NCBI GenBank assembly: GCA_043746615.1
Contig: JAYTQR010000205.1
Span: 1-58,203, forward strand
Direction of reading: 5' to 3'
Source of the DNA: Gammaproteobacteria bacterium
GTDB taxonomy: Bacteria; Pseudomonadota; Gammaproteobacteria; Steroidobacterales; Steroidobacteraceae
Length of the DNA: 58,203 bases
In this document: positions 15,925 to 25,893 of the stretch, one piece after another
Numbering within the stretch: position 1 is the first letter of the stretch
Layout of the letters: the number at the start of each line of letters is the position of its first letter
Position numbers and translations under genes: made by a program
The notes under the pieces: generated by a model
What the model saw: only the letters and a program-made list of their open reading frames with translations
What the model was told of the DNA's origin: nothing
The model's database searches: none

Positions 15925-16902
15925 CTAGATCAGCGCTTTGACGCCGTCGCGTTCTGCGCATAATTCCTGGTACGTGGCCGTCATTTTATCGCGGCTGAAT
16001 TCGTCGACGCCGAGCCCCGCGACGATGCGGTACTCGCCGGCGGCGCAGGTCACGGGGTACGAGTACACGACGCCCTCGGGAATGCCGTAGCTGCCGTCGG
16101 ACGGCACCGCCATACTGACCCAATCGCCGGCCGGCGTGCCCAACACCCAATCGCGTATGTGGTCCATCGCCGCCGACGCGGCTGATGCCGCCGACGAGCT
16201 GCCGCGTGCCTTGATGATCGCGGCGCCGCGCTGCTGCACGGTCGGAATGAACGTTGCCTTGAACCAGCTTTCTTCCACCAAAGACAGCGCCGCCTTGCCG
16301 ATCACGGTCGCGTGACGCAGATCCGGATATTGCGTGGCGGAATGGTTTCCCCAGATCGTCATCCGGGCGACATCGGCTACCGCAGCCCCGGTCCGTTCGG
16401 CAAGCTGAGCGCGGCCACGGTTGTGATCGAGACGCGTCATCGCGGTAAAGCGCGCGGGCGGCAGCGATGGCGCATTGCGCTGCGCGATCAGCGCATTCGT
16501 GTTCGCCGGATTGCCGACGACGAGAACCCTGACGTCGCGGCTCGCCACTGCGTCCAAGGCTTTGCCCTGCGCCGAGAAGATCTTCGCGTTTTCGAGCAGC
16601 AAGTCCTTCCGCTCCATACCGGGACCACGCGGCCGAGCGCCTACCAACATCGCCAACTGGCAGTCGCGAAACGCCACCTCGGCGTCGTCCGAAGCAGCGA
16701 CAGTATGGAGCGCCGGAAAAGCGCAATCGGTGATTTCCATGACCACGCCCCGAGCCGCTCCAAGTGCCGCCGGGATCTCCAGAAGATGTAAATTGACCGG
16801 CTGATCCGCACCCAGCATTTGCCCCGATGCCACGCGAAAGGCAAGCGCGTAGCCAATGTTGCCGGCCGCGCCGGTGATCGTGACCGTGACTGGTTTTTTC
16901 AA
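15925..16902 (-). CDS. mdh: malate dehydrogenase
   Basis: [31 protein letters not shown] Rossmann start, ...[11 protein letters not shown]..., 325 aa. TTG start with a GGGAG RBS. Confidence 0.93.
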
Positions 16903-17424: not shown

Positions 17425-18036
17425 TTAGACCGCACCGGCGCGAACCCGCGCCGGCGGCACCAGCTCCTCACCCAGCGATCTCTTCAGTTTGCGGACCGCA
17501 TAACGCAGGCGGCTCTTCGCCGTCTCCACGCCGACGCTCGTGATCTTGGCGATCTCCTCGACGCCGAGACCGCTTTCCTCGCGCAGCAGGAAGGCTTCGC
17601 GCTGCTCGGCTGGCAGTGCGGCCAAGGCCGACAGCAGCGCCGCCTGTTGTTGGTCGTATTCGGCGCGGCGATCGGGCCGCTCGTGGTCCGGCCCCGCTGC
17701 CTCGCCGATCGGCTCGGCAGACGTATCCGCGGCGAACCGGATCGGCGTGGCGAGCTGGCGGCGGTGATAATCGATCGTGCAGTTATGCGCTATGTGAAAT
17801 AAAAACGTCGTGAATTTCGCGCGCGCGGTGTAGCGGGCGCGTGCCGCGATCACTCGCGACCAGACCTCTTGAAACAAGTCACTGGCCACTGCCGCATTGC
17901 GAACGTGCCGCAGTAGGTACCGGTACAGACCGTCCTTGTGCCGTGCGTACAAGGCCTCGAATGCGCGGATGTCGCCATGGCCGTAGCGCAACATCAGCTG
18001 CCCATCGTAATCGACGCACTCCATGGCGCCTAGCAT
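17425..18036 (-). CDS. ECF-type RNA polymerase sigma-70 family factor
   Basis: Region 2 (FEALYARHKDGLYRYLLRHV...DLFQEVW) and region 4 (LPAEQREAFLLREESGLGVEEIAKITSVGVETAKSRLRYA). Start trimmed to the ATG at 18036; the track ORF begins with TTG at 18153. Confidence 0.88.
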   Translation of the reverse strand: MLGAMECVDYDGQLMLRYGHGDIRAFEALYARHKDGLYRYLLRHVRNAAVASDLFQEVWSRVIAARARYTARAKFTTFLFHIAHNCTIDYHRRQLATPIRFAADTSAEPIGEAAGPDHERPDRRAEYDQQQAALLSALAALPAEQREAFLLREESGLGVEEIAKITSVGVETAKSRLRYAVRKLKRSLGEELVPPARVRAGAV

Positions 18037-18179
18037 ACGGGTCCGGCGCTGGAACGTGCCATAGACGCTGGAAAGTAGGGTATCGGCTGAACGATGCATG
18101 CAACGAGTCAAACGCGCGGGGTTCGGTGCTCGGGTTAACGGCCGCGGCGACAATTTTTAACAAAGTGCTTGTATGTTGT

Positions 18180-18877: not shown

Positions 18878-19735
18878 ATGTCCACATTGATCGAAGCACG
18901 CGATTTGACCAAGAAATATGGCTCCCATCTGGCCGTCGATCACGCCAATTTTGCGGTCCAGTCCGGACGGATCGTCGGGCTTGTCGGCCCGAACGGCGCC
19001 GGCAAGACCACGGTTTTGCGGGCGCTGCTCGGCCTCGCGCCGTATCAAGGACATTTGCGCGTCTTGGGTCTGGAACCGTTCCGCGCTCGCGCCGCGCTGA
19101 TGCGCGACACCTGTTTCATTGCCGATGTTGCGGTGCTGCCAGCGTGGCTGCGCGTCGGTCAGGCGATCGATTTCGTCGCCGGCGTGCATCCTCGGTTTCG
19201 CCGTGAACGCGCCCGCGCGTTGCTCGAAAAAACCCAAATCAAACCCGCGCATCGCCTGCGCGAATTATCCAAGGGCATGAAGACCCAGGTACATCTAGCC
19301 CTGACGATGGCGATCGATGCGAAACTGCTGGTTCTCGACGAGCCGACACTGGGGCTGGATATACTAGCCCGGAGCGGCTTCTACGACGCCCTGGTCAATG
19401 ACTACATGGATGATGCGCGGACGATCCTGGTCACCACACATCAGGTCGAGGAGGTGCAAAACCTGCTGACCGACGTTCTGTTCATCGACAAGGGCCGTAT
19501 CGTACTCGATGCCTCGCGCGACGAAATCTCGGCCAGCTACGCCGCCGTCGCGGTCAGTAAGGAACAACTCCCCGCGGCCCGCGCTCTGCAGCCTTTCCAC
19601 GAACGCCGCGCGCTCGGCAAAACGCTGCTGTACTTCGAGAAAGCGGACTTCAATGCGCTGACCGCTTTCGGCGAGGTGCTCACGCCGAGCGTCGCCGACT
19701 TGTTCGTTGCAAAACTTTCCGGGAGCGCCCCATGA
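18878..19735 (+). CDS. ABC transporter ATP-binding protein
   Basis: Walker A GPNGAGKTT, signature LSKGMK, Walker B LLVLDEPT. Confidence 0.92.
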   Translation: MSTLIEARDLTKKYGSHLAVDHANFAVQSGRIVGLVGPNGAGKTTVLRALLGLAPYQGHLRVLGLEPFRARAALMRDTCFIADVAVLPAWLRVGQAIDFVAGVHPRFRRERARALLEKTQIKPAHRLRELSKGMKTQVHLALTMAIDAKLLVLDEPTLGLDILARSGFYDALVNDYMDDARTILVTTHQVEEVQNLLTDVLFIDKGRIVLDASRDEISASYAAVAVSKEQLPAARALQPFHERRALGKTLLYFEKADFNALTAFGEVLTPSVADLFVAKLSGSAP

Positions 19736-20610
19736 AAGCGTTTCGTTGGCTGCTGCGCCGGGAGTTTTGGGAAAACCGCGCGATTTGGTGCGTTCCCGCG
19801 GCGATCGCCTGCGTGTTGGTGCTCGCGGCATTGTTCGGACGCGTCGATGTGGAACTCGGCGCGTTCGGCCCGCAAAGCCGCGGCGGCGGCTTGCTGCTGT
19901 TCGCATTCGGCATCGTCTTTGTCTTGGTGATGTCGATTTACACCAGCTGGTACCTGCTCGACTGCTTGCACGCAGAGCGCAAGGATCGCAGCATCCTGTT
20001 CTGGAAATCGCTGCCGGTATCGGACGCCGCGTCCGTGCTGTCTAAGCTTGCAACAGCGCTGCTGGTAATTCCGCTGGTGTACTTCGCCGCCACCGATATG
20101 ACGACGCTGTTGATGGCTTTCATCCTGTCGATTCGCGCCGGATCCCGGCTCGGCAACAGTCTGTGGCGGCCGGATACTTGGCTGCAGCTGCAGGCTTTTT
20201 GGCTTTACTTGATCGCGACGATCGCCATTTGGTTCTTGCCAGTCGCGGGTTGGCTGATGCTGGTGTCGGCTTGGGCAAAACGCGCAGTGATGCTGTGGTC
20301 GATTCTGCCGCCGCTCGCGTTGATTTGGGCCGAACGGATGTTTCTCGGCAGCCGTGTGCTCGCCGACTGGCTGTCGAGCCGATTGTTCATCGGCTACGTA
20401 AGCACGGCATTTCATGGATACCCTGCATCCAATCGGATGGCCGCCGCGATTGCCCGCGACGAAAGCTTCGCGGCGCCGGCGAGCGTTTGGCACCTGATGA
20501 ATCCGCTAGGCTTCTTGGCGAGTTCCGCGACCTGGATCGGTGCGGCGCTCGGCATTGCGCTCGTCGTCGCCGCGATTCAAGTGCGGTCGCGCAGCACCGA
20601 GATCCAGTAG
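19732..20610 (+). CDS. ABC-2 type transporter permease (multi-pass membrane protein)
   Basis: ATGA overlap with the ATPase gene. At least 6 hydrophobic segments. Confidence 0.75.
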   Translation: MKAFRWLLRREFWENRAIWCVPAAIACVLVLAALFGRVDVELGAFGPQSRGGGLLLFAFGIVFVLVMSIYTSWYLLDCLHAERKDRSILFWKSLPVSDAASVLSKLATALLVIPLVYFAATDMTTLLMAFILSIRAGSRLGNSLWRPDTWLQLQAFWLYLIATIAIWFLPVAGWLMLVSAWAKRAVMLWSILPPLALIWAERMFLGSRVLADWLSSRLFIGYVSTAFHGYPASNRMAAAIARDESFAAPASVWHLMNPLGFLASSATWIGAALGIALVVAAIQVRSRSTEIQ

Positions 20611-20671: not shown

Positions 20672-22030
20672 TCATCCCAATAGATGCGCGAAGTAGCTGT
20701 TGCGCAGCCGGTTCAGCGGATCGGATCTCTTGCGCAGTGCGCCGAATAAACGAGCCCGCTCGCCGAACGCCTTGACGACGTGTTCCGGCTGCAGTGCGCG
20801 GGTTTGATTGAAGGTCGGCGTGCCGTTCTGCGTGGACGCAAAGTCGTTGAAGTCGATCAGGAAATCTTCCCAGCCGTGTTCGGCCGACGACGACGGCTCC
20901 AGTGTCACCATGTTGCCGGAATAGCTCGCGCTGAAAAGCGAATTCCGGTCTTTGTGCAGGCGCGCGGCGCCGGTGACGATGTTGCAGCGATACTGGTATT
21001 GCTTGTAGTACGCCCGGCAGAACGCGAAATACTCCGTCAACACCCGCGGATAATCAGCTTGTGGGAACGCCCATAGACTGTACGTATAGCGTGCCTTCCA
21101 GGCTTCGGCGGGCAAATCCCGCATCCATTCTTGTGCATAAACGATGACGCCGCGTCCCGCGCGTCCCTGCGTCGCATTGAGAGCGCGATGCACGCCCGAC
21201 AGCACCGCGCTGCGCAAGCCCGGCGTGGCGAGCACGCTGCCGACCGACGCTCCGAACGCCGGCAGCACGTTGCGCAGGACGGAATTGCGAATCTGCCAAA
21301 TGCCCGAGCGGCCTGTGCTCGCCTCTTCGTCGACGACGCGCTGTTCGACGGTCACGCGGTCATTGAACGGCGATAGATGTAGCCGCAGCGCGCCGGGCGC
21401 GGCGACGATTTTCGCGTAACGGGCGCAGAATTCGGCGAGCGTGTAAGCCTGATATTCGATCTTGACCGGCTTGACCGGACCGACGCGCAGCACGACCTCA
21501 TGGACGATGCCGAGCAGCCCGAAGCTGGATCGCAGGACCCGCATCAGGTCGCGTTCGCGTTCCGTCACGGTCAGTTGTTTGCCCTGCGGCGTGACGATCT
21601 TCATTTCGGTCACGCACGAGGCCATTTGCGCGAGGCCCTCCTGATACGAGGCCTGCGGCAGCGTCGCGACAGCGAGCGCGCCCACGGTGATATTGCCGAT
21701 TTCGGGCGTCAGCGGCAGTTCCAAGCCGCGTTCGCTGAGCGCACGCACCAAAGTACCAACGCGCACGCCGGCCTGCGCGCGCACGCAACCGTCGTCGATT
21801 TTCAAGATCTTGTTCAACTCGCCGGTACAGAGCGCGGTGCCGTCGTCGCTGCCGCCACAGCGAGTCTGCGAATAATCGGCACCGACCGGCCGAATTGGCG
21901 ATGGATACGCTTTTGGCTTGCCTAAAATAACCGCGATATCGTCGATGCGCCGCGGACTCAGCATGAGTCGCGGACGGCGATGAACGCCGGAACGTTCCGC
22001 ACGCGGCGATCGTGTCACTTTCAGTACCAT
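20672..22030 (-). CDS. FAD-binding (PCMH-type) oxidoreductase, substrate unknown
   Basis: ATG at 22030. N-terminal FAD-binding-4-like segment (...PIRPVGADYSQTRC...LNKILKIDDGCVRAQAGVRVGTLVRALSERGLELPLTPEIGNITVGALA) and a C-terminal oxidase-like domain. Preceded by the GEMM-I riboswitch. Confidence 0.8.
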   Translation of the reverse strand: MVLKVTRSPRAERSGVHRRPRLMLSPRRIDDIAVILGKPKAYPSPIRPVGADYSQTRCGGSDDGTALCTGELNKILKIDDGCVRAQAGVRVGTLVRALSERGLELPLTPEIGNITVGALAVATLPQASYQEGLAQMASCVTEMKIVTPQGKQLTVTERERDLMRVLRSSFGLLGIVHEVVLRVGPVKPVKIEYQAYTLAEFCARYAKIVAAPGALRLHLSPFNDRVTVEQRVVDEEASTGRSGIWQIRNSVLRNVLPAFGASVGSVLATPGLRSAVLSGVHRALNATQGRAGRGVIVYAQEWMRDLPAEAWKARYTYSLWAFPQADYPRVLTEYFAFCRAYYKQYQYRCNIVTGAARLHKDRNSLFSASYSGNMVTLEPSSSAEHGWEDFLIDFNDFASTQNGTPTFNQTRALQPEHVVKAFGERARLFGALRKRSDPLNRLRNSYFAHLLG

Positions 22031-22127
22031 GGCTTCCCCCCGGAAGATTGCAACGCTAGAACGACGCAAACCTACTGTTGGGGGTGCAGACCGCGCGTCA
22101 TTCAGGCAGCGCGGATAGCGAGTCGAG

Positions 22128-22230
22128 AGACTGGCAACCCCGCTGTCGTCAGGCGTCCTAGCGGATGCCTCTTAGACCGGTGGCTTTGCGTCCCCGCCTT
22201 TCAGCGGGTTTGCCCTTAAAACAGTGCGGT
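22128..22230 (-). promoter_or_regulatory. cyclic-di-GMP class I (GEMM) riboswitch aptamer
   Basis: Minus-strand RNA: GCACUGUUUUAAGGGCAAACCCGCUGAAAGGCGGGGACGCAAAGCCACCGGUCUAAGAGGCAUCCGCUAGGACGCCUGACGACAGCGGGGUUGCCAGU. It shares the conserved blocks of V. cholerae Vc2 (AGGGCAAACC / GAAA tetraloop hairpin / GGGACGCAAAGCC..CCGG..CUAA / AGCGGGGUU.CC). The P2 hairpin CCCGCU-GAAA-GGCGGG and a closing ACUG/CAGU P1 are visible. It lies about 100 nt upstream of the FAD oxidoreductase ATG. Confidence 0.85.
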
Positions 22231-22405
22231 CACTATGCGGTGAACCCACGCGTCTGTAAAGAGTCGCGTGCGACGGCCTCCAAAAAACTCATGAATTCAT
22301 GCAGTTACCCGTTTAGCAAGGGTATTTCGGCATGCTCGGCGGCGTCCGGCGTGCCGCCGGGGACGTCGGCTATGCGCAGCCGCGTTGTGTGCGCAAGTGC
22401 GGGGT

Positions 22406-23326
22406 TCAGCGCAGGGTGGAATTCAGTAGGGCGAGCCTACCCTCGAAATCGCCAAACCCGGCCATATGAATGCTGCCGGCCGGAAACTGCGACGGCTCCG
22501 CGTAGAAGGATGCAGCGCCGCCGATCCAGATTTCAATGTCTTGCCGCAGACCGGCGCGCAGCGCGGCCAGTTGCCGCAGCGAAAGTTCCAGGTTGTCGGG
22601 CATGACCATGCTGATCGCGACGGCCGCGGCGCTGACGCGTTGTGCGAAATTCGCAATCGCTGCGGGTGGCAAGTCGGGACCGAGATAGCAGGTGCGCAGT
22701 TTGTGACTGGCCGCCACCGCCGCGAACATCAGGATGCCGAGCTCATGCAATTCGCCGCTGATCGTCGCGAACACGATGGTCGCGCCCTTCGCGGCCGCGC
22801 TGTACGCCTGCAAAATACCGCTGATCTGACGCCGCATGGCGCTCGAGACCATCCGCTCCTGACCGACGGTGAATTCCCCCCGATGCCAACGGTCGCCGAC
22901 TTCACGCAGTACCGGTGATAGTACGTCGCCGAGGACCGTGCTCAGCGGCAATAGCGCGAAGGCCATCGCGATCACCTGATCGCACTCGCCGGTTTCGTAA
23001 TTCTCGATCGCATGCAGCAATTTGCCGCCAAGCGCGTGCGCCGCCGCGCCGTTGGTCCCGTCGCCGGCCCGATCTGCGAGCAGCAGCATCAATTCGGCGT
23101 CGGACAGGCGCGCAATCTTGCTGATCGAGTGTCCGCGATTGGTCGTTTCGCGCAGCCGCCGCAGCCGCGCAACGTCGCATGCCGTGTAGAGCCGGTGACC
23201 ATCGCAGCCGCGTTTCGGCTCGACGATGCTGTAACGGCGCTCCCAGGCACGCAAGGTCTCGACGCTCAGGCCCGTGGCGATGGACACCGCCTTGATCGAA
23301 TAATGCGTGCCGTCGTTATTCGACAC
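22406..23326 (-). CDS. MerR family transcriptional regulator with C-terminal cobalamin (B12)-binding domain (CarH/LitR-like)
   Basis: MerR HTH YSIKAVSIATGLSVETLRAWERRYSIVEPKRGCDGHRLYTACDVARLRRL. B12-binding Rossmann domain with ATISGELHELGILMFAAVAA (E-x-H-x-x-G lower-ligand His motif). GTG at 23326 with an upstream GAGG is preferred; the track ORF runs to GTG at 23449, which would overlap the upstream gene. Confidence 0.85.
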   Translation of the reverse strand: MSNNDGTHYSIKAVSIATGLSVETLRAWERRYSIVEPKRGCDGHRLYTACDVARLRRLRETTNRGHSISKIARLSDAELMLLLADRAGDGTNGAAAHALGGKLLHAIENYETGECDQVIAMAFALLPLSTVLGDVLSPVLREVGDRWHRGEFTVGQERMVSSAMRRQISGILQAYSAAAKGATIVFATISGELHELGILMFAAVAASHKLRTCYLGPDLPPAAIANFAQRVSAAAVAISMVMPDNLELSLRQLAALRAGLRQDIEIWIGGAASFYAEPSQFPAGSIHMAGFGDFEGRLALLNSTLR

Positions 23327-23406
23327 GCTGCGCCTCGATCGCGCGCAGGGTGAGATCCCGGGCAGATAACATAGCGGGTCATTGTAACCCGCGATACCGT
23401 ACCCGC

Positions 23407-25893
23407 CTACGAAGAGGCCGTGCGCGGCGGCCGCACCGTGGGTGCGCACAAGACCGCGTGATGGGCGACTCCGCCGCCGCGGCTCTGACTGGCCAGAATC
23501 TCGAGGAAGCTGTCTTTTTCCATGGCGTCGCCGAAGAGGCGGCCCTGCGCAAAGTGGCAGCCGTGCCGCCGCAGAAATTCCAATTGTTCGGCGGACTCGA
23601 CGCCTTCGGCGACGACTTCGAGATTGAGGCTCTTGCCCATATCGATGATCGTGCGGACGATCGCGGCGTCGTCGGAATCCACGGCGACGTCGCAGACGAA
23701 CGATTGATCGATCTTCAAGGTGCCAATCGGGAATTGCTGCAACGCTGAAAGCGACGAATATCCGGTGCCGAAGTCGTCGATCGCCAGGTGCAATCCCATG
23801 CCGTACAACTCGTTCAGCAGGAAAATTGTGCGCTTCGGATCGGTCATCAACGTCGTCTCGGTGACCTCCAGCTCGAATGACGTCGGCGAGACTTCATGCT
23901 TGCGGAAAATGGCGCGCGCGCGCGCGATGAAGCTCGATTGCTTCAGCTGCCGCAACGACAGATTGATGGCGACACGGCCGGGTTGCGGCACGACGCGTTG
24001 CCACTCCCGGTAATCGGCGCAAACTCTGTTCATGACCCATTCGCCGATTTCCGCGATCAAACTGGTTTCCTCGGCGAGCGGAATGAAGTGCGCGGGCGAA
24101 ATATCCCCGTGGCCCGGCAGCCGCCAGCGCAGCAGCGCCTCGGCGCCGACGACACGCCCGTCGCGCAAATCGACCTTCGATTGATACAGGATGACCAGTT
24201 CGTCTCTTTCCATCGCGCGCCGCAGCTTGCTCTTCAGCATCAAACGCTCCACCGCCACGGCGTTCATCTCGGGGACGTAGAACGCGCTCGAGTTGCCGCC
24301 GTTTTGCTTGGAGTGATACATCGCCGCATCGGCGTTGCGGATCAGGTCGATGACGTTTTCGGCATCGTTCGGGCACAGCGCGATGCCCACGCTCGCCGTC
24401 AGATACACCTCTTCCTGATTGACGTAAAAAGTCCGGCTGATCTCGTCGAGCAACGTCCGCGCCAGTGCGCCGATGCCGGCGCGATTGTCCGCATCGGGCG
24501 GCAGGTCGTCGATGAACATCGCGAATTCGTCTCCGGCCAGACGGCCGATGATCGTATCCTTGCTCAAGTTCCGCGTCAGGCGCTCGCTAAGGATCTCCAG
24601 CGTGCGATCGCCGGCCGCATGCCCGAACGTGTCGTTTACTTCCTTGAAGCGATCCAAATCCAGATACAGCAGCGCGAGCGAGCGCTGGTTGCGGCGCGAG
24701 CGGGCGATGGCCTGCTGCAGCAAATGCTGGAATTGCATTCTGTTCGGCATCTTCGTCAGCGTGTCGTAGCGCGCCAAATAGCGAATGCGCCGCTCCGCGC
24801 GCTTGCGCTCGGTAATGTTGCGCGCGACGTATATAGTGCCCTGGAACTGCGGGTCGGCGGTGCTGATCGGCGAACTCGCCATCGACACGGGGATCGTCTG
24901 TCCGCTAGCGGTACGCAACACCGTCTCGCGGGCCTCCGACGCGCCGGGCGCCGGATCGAATCCTGGACGGTGCGGCTCGTCGATGAAACCGACCAAGGGC
25001 TTGCCGAACAGCTCGTCGTCCTGGTAACCGAGCAGCAGATGCGCGGCCTCGTTGCAGCTCTTGACTGTGCCGTCGGGCGAGGTGACCAACACCGCGTCGC
25101 TGAGGCTGTTCAGCACCGTGTTCAGATAATTCTTCGTTATCGTCGTTTCCCGCAATTTTTGCCGCATGCGTTCCAGCGCCGATTGCAGTTCGCCGATTTC
25201 GTCGCGGCGCACGACGGCAAGCGGCCGCGTGTAATCACCCTCGCCGATTCGGTCGGCGGTCTTCACCAATGCCGCGATCGGGCGCGCCAATTGCCGGGCG
25301 ATGAACCACGCCCCCGTCAATCCCACGAGCAACAGCAGCCCGCAGAGACCCGCGAGGCGGCCGACCACCCGGGCGGCCTGGCGCTGCTGCTGATGCTCGA
25401 GTTCCGCGCGCAGTTCAGCGAGCGTCCCTTCGAGATTGGCCCTACTCATCCAGATACGCAGCTCGCCGACGCGCCGCGGCACGTTGCCGCGCAGGGTAGC
25501 TAGAATCTTGGTTTGCAGAACGAAGGGTCCGCTCACCGACCGCGGCACGCGTGCGGCGGTGTTGCCGTAGACGACATTGCCGGCGGCGTCCGATACCTCG
25601 ACGCGTTCGACGTCGTTTTGCCGGAGCAGCCGTGCGGCGACCGCGGCGATCGCCGCGGTATTCCCCGACCTTAGCGACGTCGCCAGCGAAGAGGCAGAAA
25701 TTCTGCTGAGATTGTGCGCCCGAGCTTCGAGATCCGACTCGATCTTGCTGCCGACGGTAGCGTTCGCAAGCTCGGTGATTTTTGTGGCGTCGGTGCGGTT
25801 TGCATAGTAGACCAGGTCGCAGAGCAGGCCGGATAGCACAACGACGACCACAAAGGCCATCAGCGTATAGTTTGTTTTAAGGCTCCGTGCCAT
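23407..25893 (-). CDS. membrane sensor, HAMP-PAS-GGDEF-EAL c-di-GMP turnover protein
   Basis: Two TM helices flank a periplasmic region of about 150 aa. HAMP (ARPIAALVKTADRIGEGDY), then PAS. The GGDEF domain carries the variant AGDEF signature. The EAL domain has ELVILYQSK, EALLRW, ELEVTE, DDFGTGYSSL, KIDQSF and EGVE motifs. Confidence 0.92.
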   Translation of the reverse strand: MARSLKTNYTLMAFVVVVVLSGLLCDLVYYANRTDATKITELANATVGSKIESDLEARAHNLSRISASSLATSLRSGNTAAIAAVAARLLRQNDVERVEVSDAAGNVVYGNTAARVPRSVSGPFVLQTKILATLRGNVPRRVGELRIWMSRANLEGTLAELRAELEHQQQRQAARVVGRLAGLCGLLLLVGLTGAWFIARQLARPIAALVKTADRIGEGDYTRPLAVVRRDEIGELQSALERMRQKLRETTITKNYLNTVLNSLSDAVLVTSPDGTVKSCNEAAHLLLGYQDDELFGKPLVGFIDEPHRPGFDPAPGASEARETVLRTASGQTIPVSMASSPISTADPQFQGTIYVARNITERKRAERRIRYLARYDTLTKMPNRMQFQHLLQQAIARSRRNQRSLALLYLDLDRFKEVNDTFGHAAGDRTLEILSERLTRNLSKDTIIGRLAGDEFAMFIDDLPPDADNRAGIGALARTLLDEISRTFYVNQEEVYLTASVGIALCPNDAENVIDLIRNADAAMYHSKQNGGNSSAFYVPEMNAVAVERLMLKSKLRRAMERDELVILYQSKVDLRDGRVVGAEALLRWRLPGHGDISPAHFIPLAEETSLIAEIGEWVMNRVCADYREWQRVVPQPGRVAINLSLRQLKQSSFIARARAIFRKHEVSPTSFELEVTETTLMTDPKRTIFLLNELYGMGLHLAIDDFGTGYSSLSALQQFPIGTLKIDQSFVCDVAVDSDDAAIVRTIIDMGKSLNLEVVAEGVESAEQLEFLRRHGCHFAQGRLFGDAMEKDSFLEILASQSRGGGVAHHAVLCAPTVRPPRTASS

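Follow-up and report, generated by a model that had tools for sequence, protein, structure and literature searches.

The GEMM motif, as described by Weinberg et al. 2007 (PMC1950547), comprises stems of 2 and 6 bp, an internal loop of three conserved nucleotides, a GNRA loop and a receptor-like region that occurs when this loop is GAAA, and its two hairpins are joined by a linker that is 'virtually always AAA' (PMC1950547). Many GEMM-I members have been proposed to work via terminators in competition with the second hairpin, such that expression goes up at high ligand, and the recurrent GEMM-associated gene families compiled in Table 2 of the same work include no oxidoreductase (Weinberg et al. 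2007, PMC1950547). Here, we compare with these systems a locus from a soil gammaproteobacterium of the family Steroidobacteraceae (class Gammaproteobacteria, order Steroidobacterales) in which an aptamer of this class precedes a flavoenzyme gene; the window referred to throughout is the whole stretch of DNA that was analysed, 58,203 nt in length.

A cmscan search of the entire 58,203-nt window against Rfam 15 produced a single match at or above the gathering score, to the c-di-GMP-I family (RF01051) at 22224-22130 on the minus strand, with a score of 80.2 bits (gathering score, 35 bits) and an E-value of 3.2e-14. The match is untruncated, covering model positions 1-87 of 87, and a repeat scan of the sub-region agrees with it. 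This search was the check named in the earlier note, which, from the letters of the sequence, had proposed a class I c-di-GMP (GEMM-I) riboswitch in the leader of a gene for an FAD-binding oxidoreductase, and the minus-strand sequence quoted there indeed lies at 22128-22230. The sequence blocks that it listed, namely AAGGGCAAACC, CCCGCU-GAAA-GGCGGG, GACGC-AAA-GCC, CCGGUCUAAG, AGCGGGGUUGCC and the ACUG/CAGU closure, are real and align with the RF01051 model as claimed, and the distal hairpin is the one that was named, AGGCAUCC-GCUA-GGACGCCU. The spacing also holds, with the 3' end of the aptamer (22130) located 99 nt upstream of the ATG at 22030, compared to the claimed 100 nt or so. No second copy of the aptamer was found in the window with a covariance model of our own.

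The closest described system is Vc2 of Vibrio cholerae, the prototype of RF01051, with which the element shares a two-hairpin aptamer located in a 5' UTR, a first hairpin of 2+6 bp that has AAA as its internal loop and is capped by a GAAA tetraloop, the AAA linker, a CUAAG-type receptor region in the second hairpin, and the G, A and C contacts (Table 1). The contacts were matched to G20, A47 and C92 of Vc2, the nucleotides that touch the ligand in the crystal structures. The base of the second hairpin, below the distal part formed by AGGCAUCC and GGACGCCU, bears the UCUAAG and GACGACAGC blocks; UCUAAG and GACGA(U/C)AGC align with the CUAAg and uAuGacAGC segments of the model and constitute a putative tetraloop-receptor region. 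The element differs from Vc2 and RF01051 in its host, a member of the Steroidobacteraceae, in its target, which is an FAD_binding_4/ALO-like flavoenzyme gene and not a gene for motility, pili, chitin or GGDEF/EAL proteins, in its apparently purely translational platform (C-box/SD), and in one A.C mismatch in the distal hairpin of the window. In its plain minimum free energy fold, which is no more stable than those of shuffled sequences (z -0.17), the 214-nt leader does not form the aptamer, a result that has no bearing on a ligand-stabilised fold.

Table 1. Coordinates of the riboswitch, of the other leader elements and of the surrounding genes in the window
Feature	Position	Strand	Evidence
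Flavoprotein gene, 452 aa	20672..22030	-	FAD_binding_4 and weak ALO-like C-terminal domain; Pfam, NCBIfam, PDB sequence search
c-di-GMP-I aptamer	22130..22225	-	RF01051, 80.2 bits; own model R1, 113 bits; pair counts (84 sequences); column composition
Aptamer closing helix (P1)	ACUG 22225-22222 with CAGU 22133-22130	-	Model alignment
GAAA-capped first hairpin, GC-AAA-CCCGCU-GAAA-GGCGGG-GAC-GC	22213-22188	-	Model alignment
AAA linker	22187-22185	-	Model alignment
Second hairpin	22185-22136	-	Model alignment
Ligand-contact equivalents	G22214 (G20), A22187 (A47), C22134 (C92)	-	Alignment to Vc2 numbering
-35 hexamer TTTACA	22255..22260	-	Promoter scan; invariant in 63/63 distinct orthologous upstream regions
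-10 hexamer CATAGT	22232..22237	-	Promoter scan; invariant in 63/63 regions
Leader hairpin CCGCGC...GCGCGG	22091..22114	-	Alignment A5; both-side changes in 4/6 pairs
C-box / anti-aptamer segment GCACCCCCAACAGU	22074..22087	-	Conserved block GGUUUUGUGCCCCCCGACAGC; duplex energies; pair counts
Shine-Dalgarno region UCUUCCGGGGGGAAG	22032..22046	-	Conserved in almost all orthologues; G-run 22041-22036, 5 nt before ATG
CarH-like MerR/B12-binding regulator (possible light sensor)	22406-23449	-	Pfam/NCBIfam
PAS-HAMP-GGDEF-EAL protein	23407-25893	-	Pfam/NCBIfam
Malate/lactate dehydrogenase	15925-16902	-	Neighbour gene
ECF-type sigma-70 factor	17425-18153	-	Neighbour gene
ABC-type ATPase and probable permease (permease ORF without Pfam match)	18878-20610	+	Neighbour genes

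To the window we added orthologous loci, 4 from genome contigs and 80 from metagenome contigs, and ran our covariance model, built from five aptamers, over the 85 sources. In 84 of these loci, the model detects exactly one aptamer, on the strand of the gene and immediately 5' of it, at a distance of 88-116 nt from the ATG; the remaining locus (L070) starts inside the gene and has no upstream DNA, so that 84 loci are informative. The three ligand-contact columns are invariant among the rows that cover them (G in 82/82, A in 82/82 and C in 84/84), and the AAA linker (columns 44-46 of alignment A4) is A in 82/82 sequences. Standard pairs occupy 95.4% of the aptamer pair cells in the 84 sequences, compared to only 34-51% in slid controls. 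Eight pairs are changed on both sides, seven of them in the distal helix (that is, 7 of the 8 distal pairs), and the observed covariation score was reached by none of 500 shuffles. Across 71 distinct sequences, the stems of the first hairpin are 99-100% paired, and one pair alternates between G-C, G-U and A-U. In the sole distant genome homologue that was fetched, from Kitasatospora (L005), no aptamer was found.

A match with an E-value of 3e-14 that recurs in 84/84 informative loci is far beyond chance. The notion that it is a fortuitous resemblance or a decayed, non-functional relic is already refuted by the conservation data, given the invariant core, the compensating distal helix and the fixed distance from the promoter in addition to the E-value of the window, and we assign it a negligible probability. 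The class I identity proposed for this element is thus backed by the covariance model score, the canonical G, A and C, the covariation over 84 orthologous loci and the conserved promoter, and a functional c-di-GMP-I riboswitch almost certainly controls this flavoenzyme gene, as judged from comparative sequence data.

The ligand specificity requires a closer look because Rfam clan competition assigns a different family, RF03167 ('c-di-GMP-I-GGC'), to 17 of the 24 orthologues that were scanned (4/4 from genomes and 13/20 from metagenomes; for example, L001-L004, L009:2806-2900 and L029:2751-2848). The scores behind these labels are 59-70 bits (gathering score, 59); the other 7 of the 20 sampled metagenome orthologues are labelled RF01051, with 67-79 bits. 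The RF03167 consensus, GACGCGAA, differs from that of RF01051, GACGCAAA, at one position, directly after GACGC, which is the equivalent of A47. The nucleotide at this position is A, and never G, in 82/82 sequences, which are therefore canonical GAC-type aptamers, and the 'GGC' label was rejected because the diagnostic G is absent from every sequence that covers the column. What the sequences do share with RF03167, apart from a near-identical architecture, is a GC-rich first hairpin (CCCGCCGAAAGGCGGG), and the labels, many of them just over the threshold, reflect this common feature. Accordingly, automated Rfam annotation mislabels many aptamers of this clade as 'GGC' despite the missing diagnostic nucleotide.

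The other candidate for altered specificity is the c-AMP-GMP (GEMM-Ib) group known from Geobacter, which has the same fold and belongs to the same Rfam clan. An A at the position of G20 reportedly marks the cGAMP-selective members; the aptamers described here differ in having G at the equivalent position in 82/82 sequences. The top score of the window, moreover, is to RF01051. Recognition of 3'3'-cGAMP, or of the ligand of the RF03167 class, instead of c-di-GMP thus appears very unlikely, the labels given to the orthologues notwithstanding. Because all testable features of RF01051 are present, and the nucleotides typical of RF03167 and of the cGAMP type are absent, the aptamer is a straightforward member of the class described in 2007-2008, and any Rfam-based annotation would flag it.

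The promoter of the window, TTTACA-N17-CATAGT, spans 22260-22232 on the minus strand. Among the 63 distinct orthologous upstream regions, the spacer between the two hexamers is 17 or 18 nt in 62, and the distance from the end of the -10 hexamer to the C of the P1 CUG is 7 nt in 62 as well. Given this fixed distance from the promoter to P1, the mRNA is predicted to begin at the aptamer, with a transcription start at about 22224-22226, on the P1 5' strand. Just upstream of TTTACA, at about -45 to -38, most orthologues (for example, L019, L021 and L022) carry an A-tract (AAAAAAA) that resembles an UP element; the window has no A-tract. At its other end, the flavoenzyme gene converges on the ABC transporter operon, and therefore the riboswitch controls a single gene. 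The convergent ABC pair is an arrangement kept in most orthologous loci.

A scan of the leader between the aptamer and the ATG found no intrinsic terminator, that is, no hairpin followed by a U-run. Instead, this part of the leader contains two conserved blocks. The first, GGUUUUGUGCCCCCCGACAGC (GGUCUGCACCCCCAACAGU in the window, 22091-22074 on the minus strand), includes a C-box that is complementary to both the Shine-Dalgarno G-run and the 5' half of the aptamer (ACUGUU...GGG); the second, UCUUCCGGGGGGAAGC (22046-22031 on the minus strand in the window), sits 3-6 nt before the AUG and includes the Shine-Dalgarno sequence. The leader hairpin next to the C-box is, in alignment A5, the positional equivalent of a GAAACC/GGUUUU hairpin present in most orthologues.

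With the aptamer helices enforced, nearly all of the 71 leaders pair the Shine-Dalgarno G-run with the C-box, and the mean unpaired probability of the Shine-Dalgarno sequence is 0.09, compared to 0.25 in the free ensemble. In alignment A5, the C-box:SD helix and the leader hairpin next to it are jointly 89% paired and include 8 pairs with changes on both sides; depending on the measure, the observed values were reached by 0-14 of 500 shuffles. Compensation within the C-box:SD helix is exemplified by CCCCCUUG/CAAGGGGG in L049 and by UCCCCU/AGGGGA in L023.

The alternative partner of the C-box is the aptamer itself, the block being the reverse complement of GCUGUU...GGGCA...AAACC in the aptamer 5' half. 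In typical members, this duplex has an energy of about -21 kcal/mol, compared to -11 +/- 3 kcal/mol for background windows of the same locus, and it ranks in the best 1% or so of the locus windows for about two thirds of 66 leaders (mean z -2.7). The helix is 88% paired in register and 35-54% paired when slid. Pair counts on the alignment reveal no covariation of this anti-aptamer helix beyond that of shuffled controls because the aptamer side is invariant; the helix is therefore backed by conservation and complementarity. Lineages with a different box (CCCUUGAAUGGC/CCCUUGAAUAGC, in L042 and L049) retain a continuous 12-bp complement to GCUGUUCAAGGG, and about nine leaders show no aptamer:C-box complementarity, with the box chosen automatically.

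The free ensembles of about twenty leaders are split, with the C-box on the aptamer and a local CUUCC-GGGG-GGAAG hairpin that holds the Shine-Dalgarno sequence in its loop. As a short palindrome, the Shine-Dalgarno region UCUUCCGGGGGGAAG is able to form this CUUCC/GGAAG hairpin on its own, and L009 has a compensatory variant, UUUUCC/GGAAAA, which together suggest that the local hairpin is a real third state of the leader.

The pairing of the C-box with the Shine-Dalgarno sequence, its pairing with the aptamer 5' half, and the split of the free ensembles point to a translational OFF switch of a standard three-element design, in which the C-box, shared between the aptamer and the Shine-Dalgarno sequence, would couple the aptamer to the expression platform. 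In this scheme, the sigma-70-type promoter TTTACA-N17-CATAGT would start a monocistronic mRNA whose first 95 nt or so would fold as a canonical class I c-di-GMP aptamer, followed by a terminator-free leader of about 100 nt that bears the C-rich box and the G-rich Shine-Dalgarno sequence. Without ligand, the C-box region would pair with the aptamer 5' half (the P1 5' strand and the GGGC/AAACC segment), leaving the Shine-Dalgarno sequence available, or engaged only in a weak local hairpin, so that the flavoenzyme would be translated. With c-di-GMP bound, the aptamer would keep its own 5' half, and the released C-box would pair with the Shine-Dalgarno sequence and block initiation. High c-di-GMP would thus result in less of the ALO/DprE1-like flavoenzyme. 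The OFF direction is what we infer from the complementarity and the folding, and we regard the full statement, a functional c-di-GMP-I riboswitch that acts as a translational OFF switch, as reasonably probable.

The same aptamer could also obey a different logic, that is, an ON switch, Rho-dependent termination or control of mRNA stability rather than occlusion of the Shine-Dalgarno sequence. Many GEMM-I members have indeed been proposed to raise expression at high ligand (Weinberg 2007, PMC1950547), the anti-aptamer helix does not covary, and thermodynamic modelling of the window sequence does not separate two states. The aptamer:C-box duplex of the window has an energy of -15.3 kcal/mol, a value that 33 of the 1997 background windows equal or surpass; the constrained minimum free energies are equal (-72.6 with the aptamer forced and -72.7 with the alternative helix forced), with the Shine-Dalgarno sequence in the local hairpin in both; and its unpaired probability is 0.19 in the free ensemble versus 0.31 with the aptamer forced. 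The thermodynamic signal for an OFF switch in the window's own sequence is weak, in a type of equilibrium folding that ignores the ligand energy, tertiary contacts and co-transcriptional kinetics. Against these points, the leader lacks any terminator-like hairpin with a U-run, and the C-box:SD helix covaries and forms in nearly all orthologues once the aptamer is forced. The opposite coupling would be required for an ON switch, so this pairing counts against such a design. On balance, we consider a logic other than Shine-Dalgarno occlusion to be somewhat unlikely, and the translational OFF switch remains the preferred reading.

The regulated gene was correctly recognized in the earlier note as encoding an FAD-binding oxidoreductase: the product matches the FAD_binding_4 domain (PF01565) with an E-value of 5.7e-17 and a score of 62 bits against a cut-off of 26.4. 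The ALO domain (PF04030) is matched end to end, at the sub-threshold score of 16.4 bits (cut-off, 23.1), and some orthologues have a recorded PF04030 match. All NCBIfam matches, to models of bacterial FAD-linked oxidoreductases, sugar-lactone oxidases, GLDH and DprE1, are far below threshold; in particular, the score is 79.3 bits for TIGR01679 (cut-off, 292.25) and 53.6 bits for TIGR01678 (cut-off, 396.8). Given that the PF01565 cut-off is exceeded and the TIGR01678 and TIGR01679 scores are far below theirs, the assignment holds at the superfamily level only: the protein is a flavoenzyme of the VAO superfamily, in the aldonolactone oxidoreductase/DprE1-like branch. PDB sequences match the N-terminal FAD domain only, namely GLDH (8qmy, 9e-19 with the family profile), xylitol oxidase (2vfr) and, weakly, DprE1. 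With this branch (GLDH 8qmy, xylitol oxidase 2vfr, DprE1 4fdn) the protein shares FAD_binding_4 and a weak, full-length ALO-type C-terminal domain; it differs in not coming close to any of the NCBIfam equivalog or subfamily cut-offs and in two residues of the GLDH alignment, Tyr53 where GLDH has Leu, and an invariant Pro109 at the 'gatekeeper' position occupied by Ala113 in GLDH. The position equivalent to Tyr53 is where ALO and alditol oxidase carry the histidine that binds FAD covalently, and Gly or Pro at the gatekeeper position is said to be typical of O2-reactive members. Tyr53 and Pro109 thus weakly suggest non-covalently bound FAD and, possibly, oxidase-type reactivity with O2. An AlphaFold2 model of the enzyme, made with a shallow alignment of 15 close orthologues, is poor (mean pLDDT 47).

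The nearest proteins in the database have 452 aa and 70-83% identity to the window protein, the named ones coming from Steroidobacteraceae MAGs; the range for the 452-aa orthologues in general is 69-83%. The orthologues fall into one cluster at 50% clustering, and the next full-length relatives are 28-38% identical. The database protein of the window itself (P0001) has 430 aa (start at about 21964), versus 452 aa in all orthologues. The conserved N-terminus MVxKVTRSP and the conserved Shine-Dalgarno sequence 5-8 nt upstream fit a start at the ATG at 22030, so that the database gene call probably begins 22 codons too late and the mechanical ORF start, a TTG at 22069, is too early. Several distant full-length relatives, 28-36% identical, are fused to further redox domains, which are an N-terminal short-chain dehydrogenase (SDR) domain (P0132, P0133 and P0153), an MpaB/Lcp oxygenase (P0140) or a GMC oxidoreductase (P0181). 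The SDR fusions are reminiscent of the DprE1/DprE2 oxidase-reductase pair and may provide a hint to the chemistry of the family.

Just upstream of the riboswitch, on the same strand, the CarH-like and GGDEF-EAL genes give the neighbourhood the appearance of a c-di-GMP module. A conserved module consisting of the CarH-like gene, the GGDEF-EAL gene and the riboswitch was rejected because these neighbours are not conserved across loci: in tblastn searches, 10 loci have a CarH-like gene at a distance of about 2.4 kb on the upstream side, and no GGDEF-EAL homologue was found in the other 84 loci. In three loci examined, a KefB-type antiporter is directly upstream of the riboswitch, between it and the CarH-like gene or the position of that gene.

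The earlier note also considered an FAD-linked oxidase to be an unusual member of a GEMM regulon, and this view stands in part. Oxidoreductases are missing from the recurrent gene families tabulated by Weinberg et al. 2007 (PMC1950547, Table 2), and our literature searches found no paper on an association of GEMM-I with such a flavoenzyme, or on GEMM in Steroidobacter, so that the conserved gene association appears to be undescribed. The association is nevertheless unsurprising, since the genes under GEMM control are known to be very diverse.

The element leaves the knowledge of the riboswitch class unchanged, and it adds modestly to what is known, with a single-gene regulon member that is strictly conserved in a soil-dominant family and with a compact translational platform. 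The apparently purely translational GEMM-I leader is suited to simple reporter fusions, and the riboswitch, present in 84/84 informative loci, ties c-di-GMP signalling in the Steroidobacteraceae, a common, little-studied soil family, to one specific enzyme. Prompted by the hint from the SDR fusions in distant full-length relatives, one may go further and speculate that the flavoenzyme is a dedicated c-di-GMP output, a DprE1-like oxidase that would remodel some envelope metabolite, such as a cell-surface or lipid-linked sugar, and would be made only at low c-di-GMP, in the motile or planktonic state. We consider this role improbable; if it is true, a new enzymatic activity controlled by c-di-GMP in a widespread soil lineage would become directly accessible through the leader.
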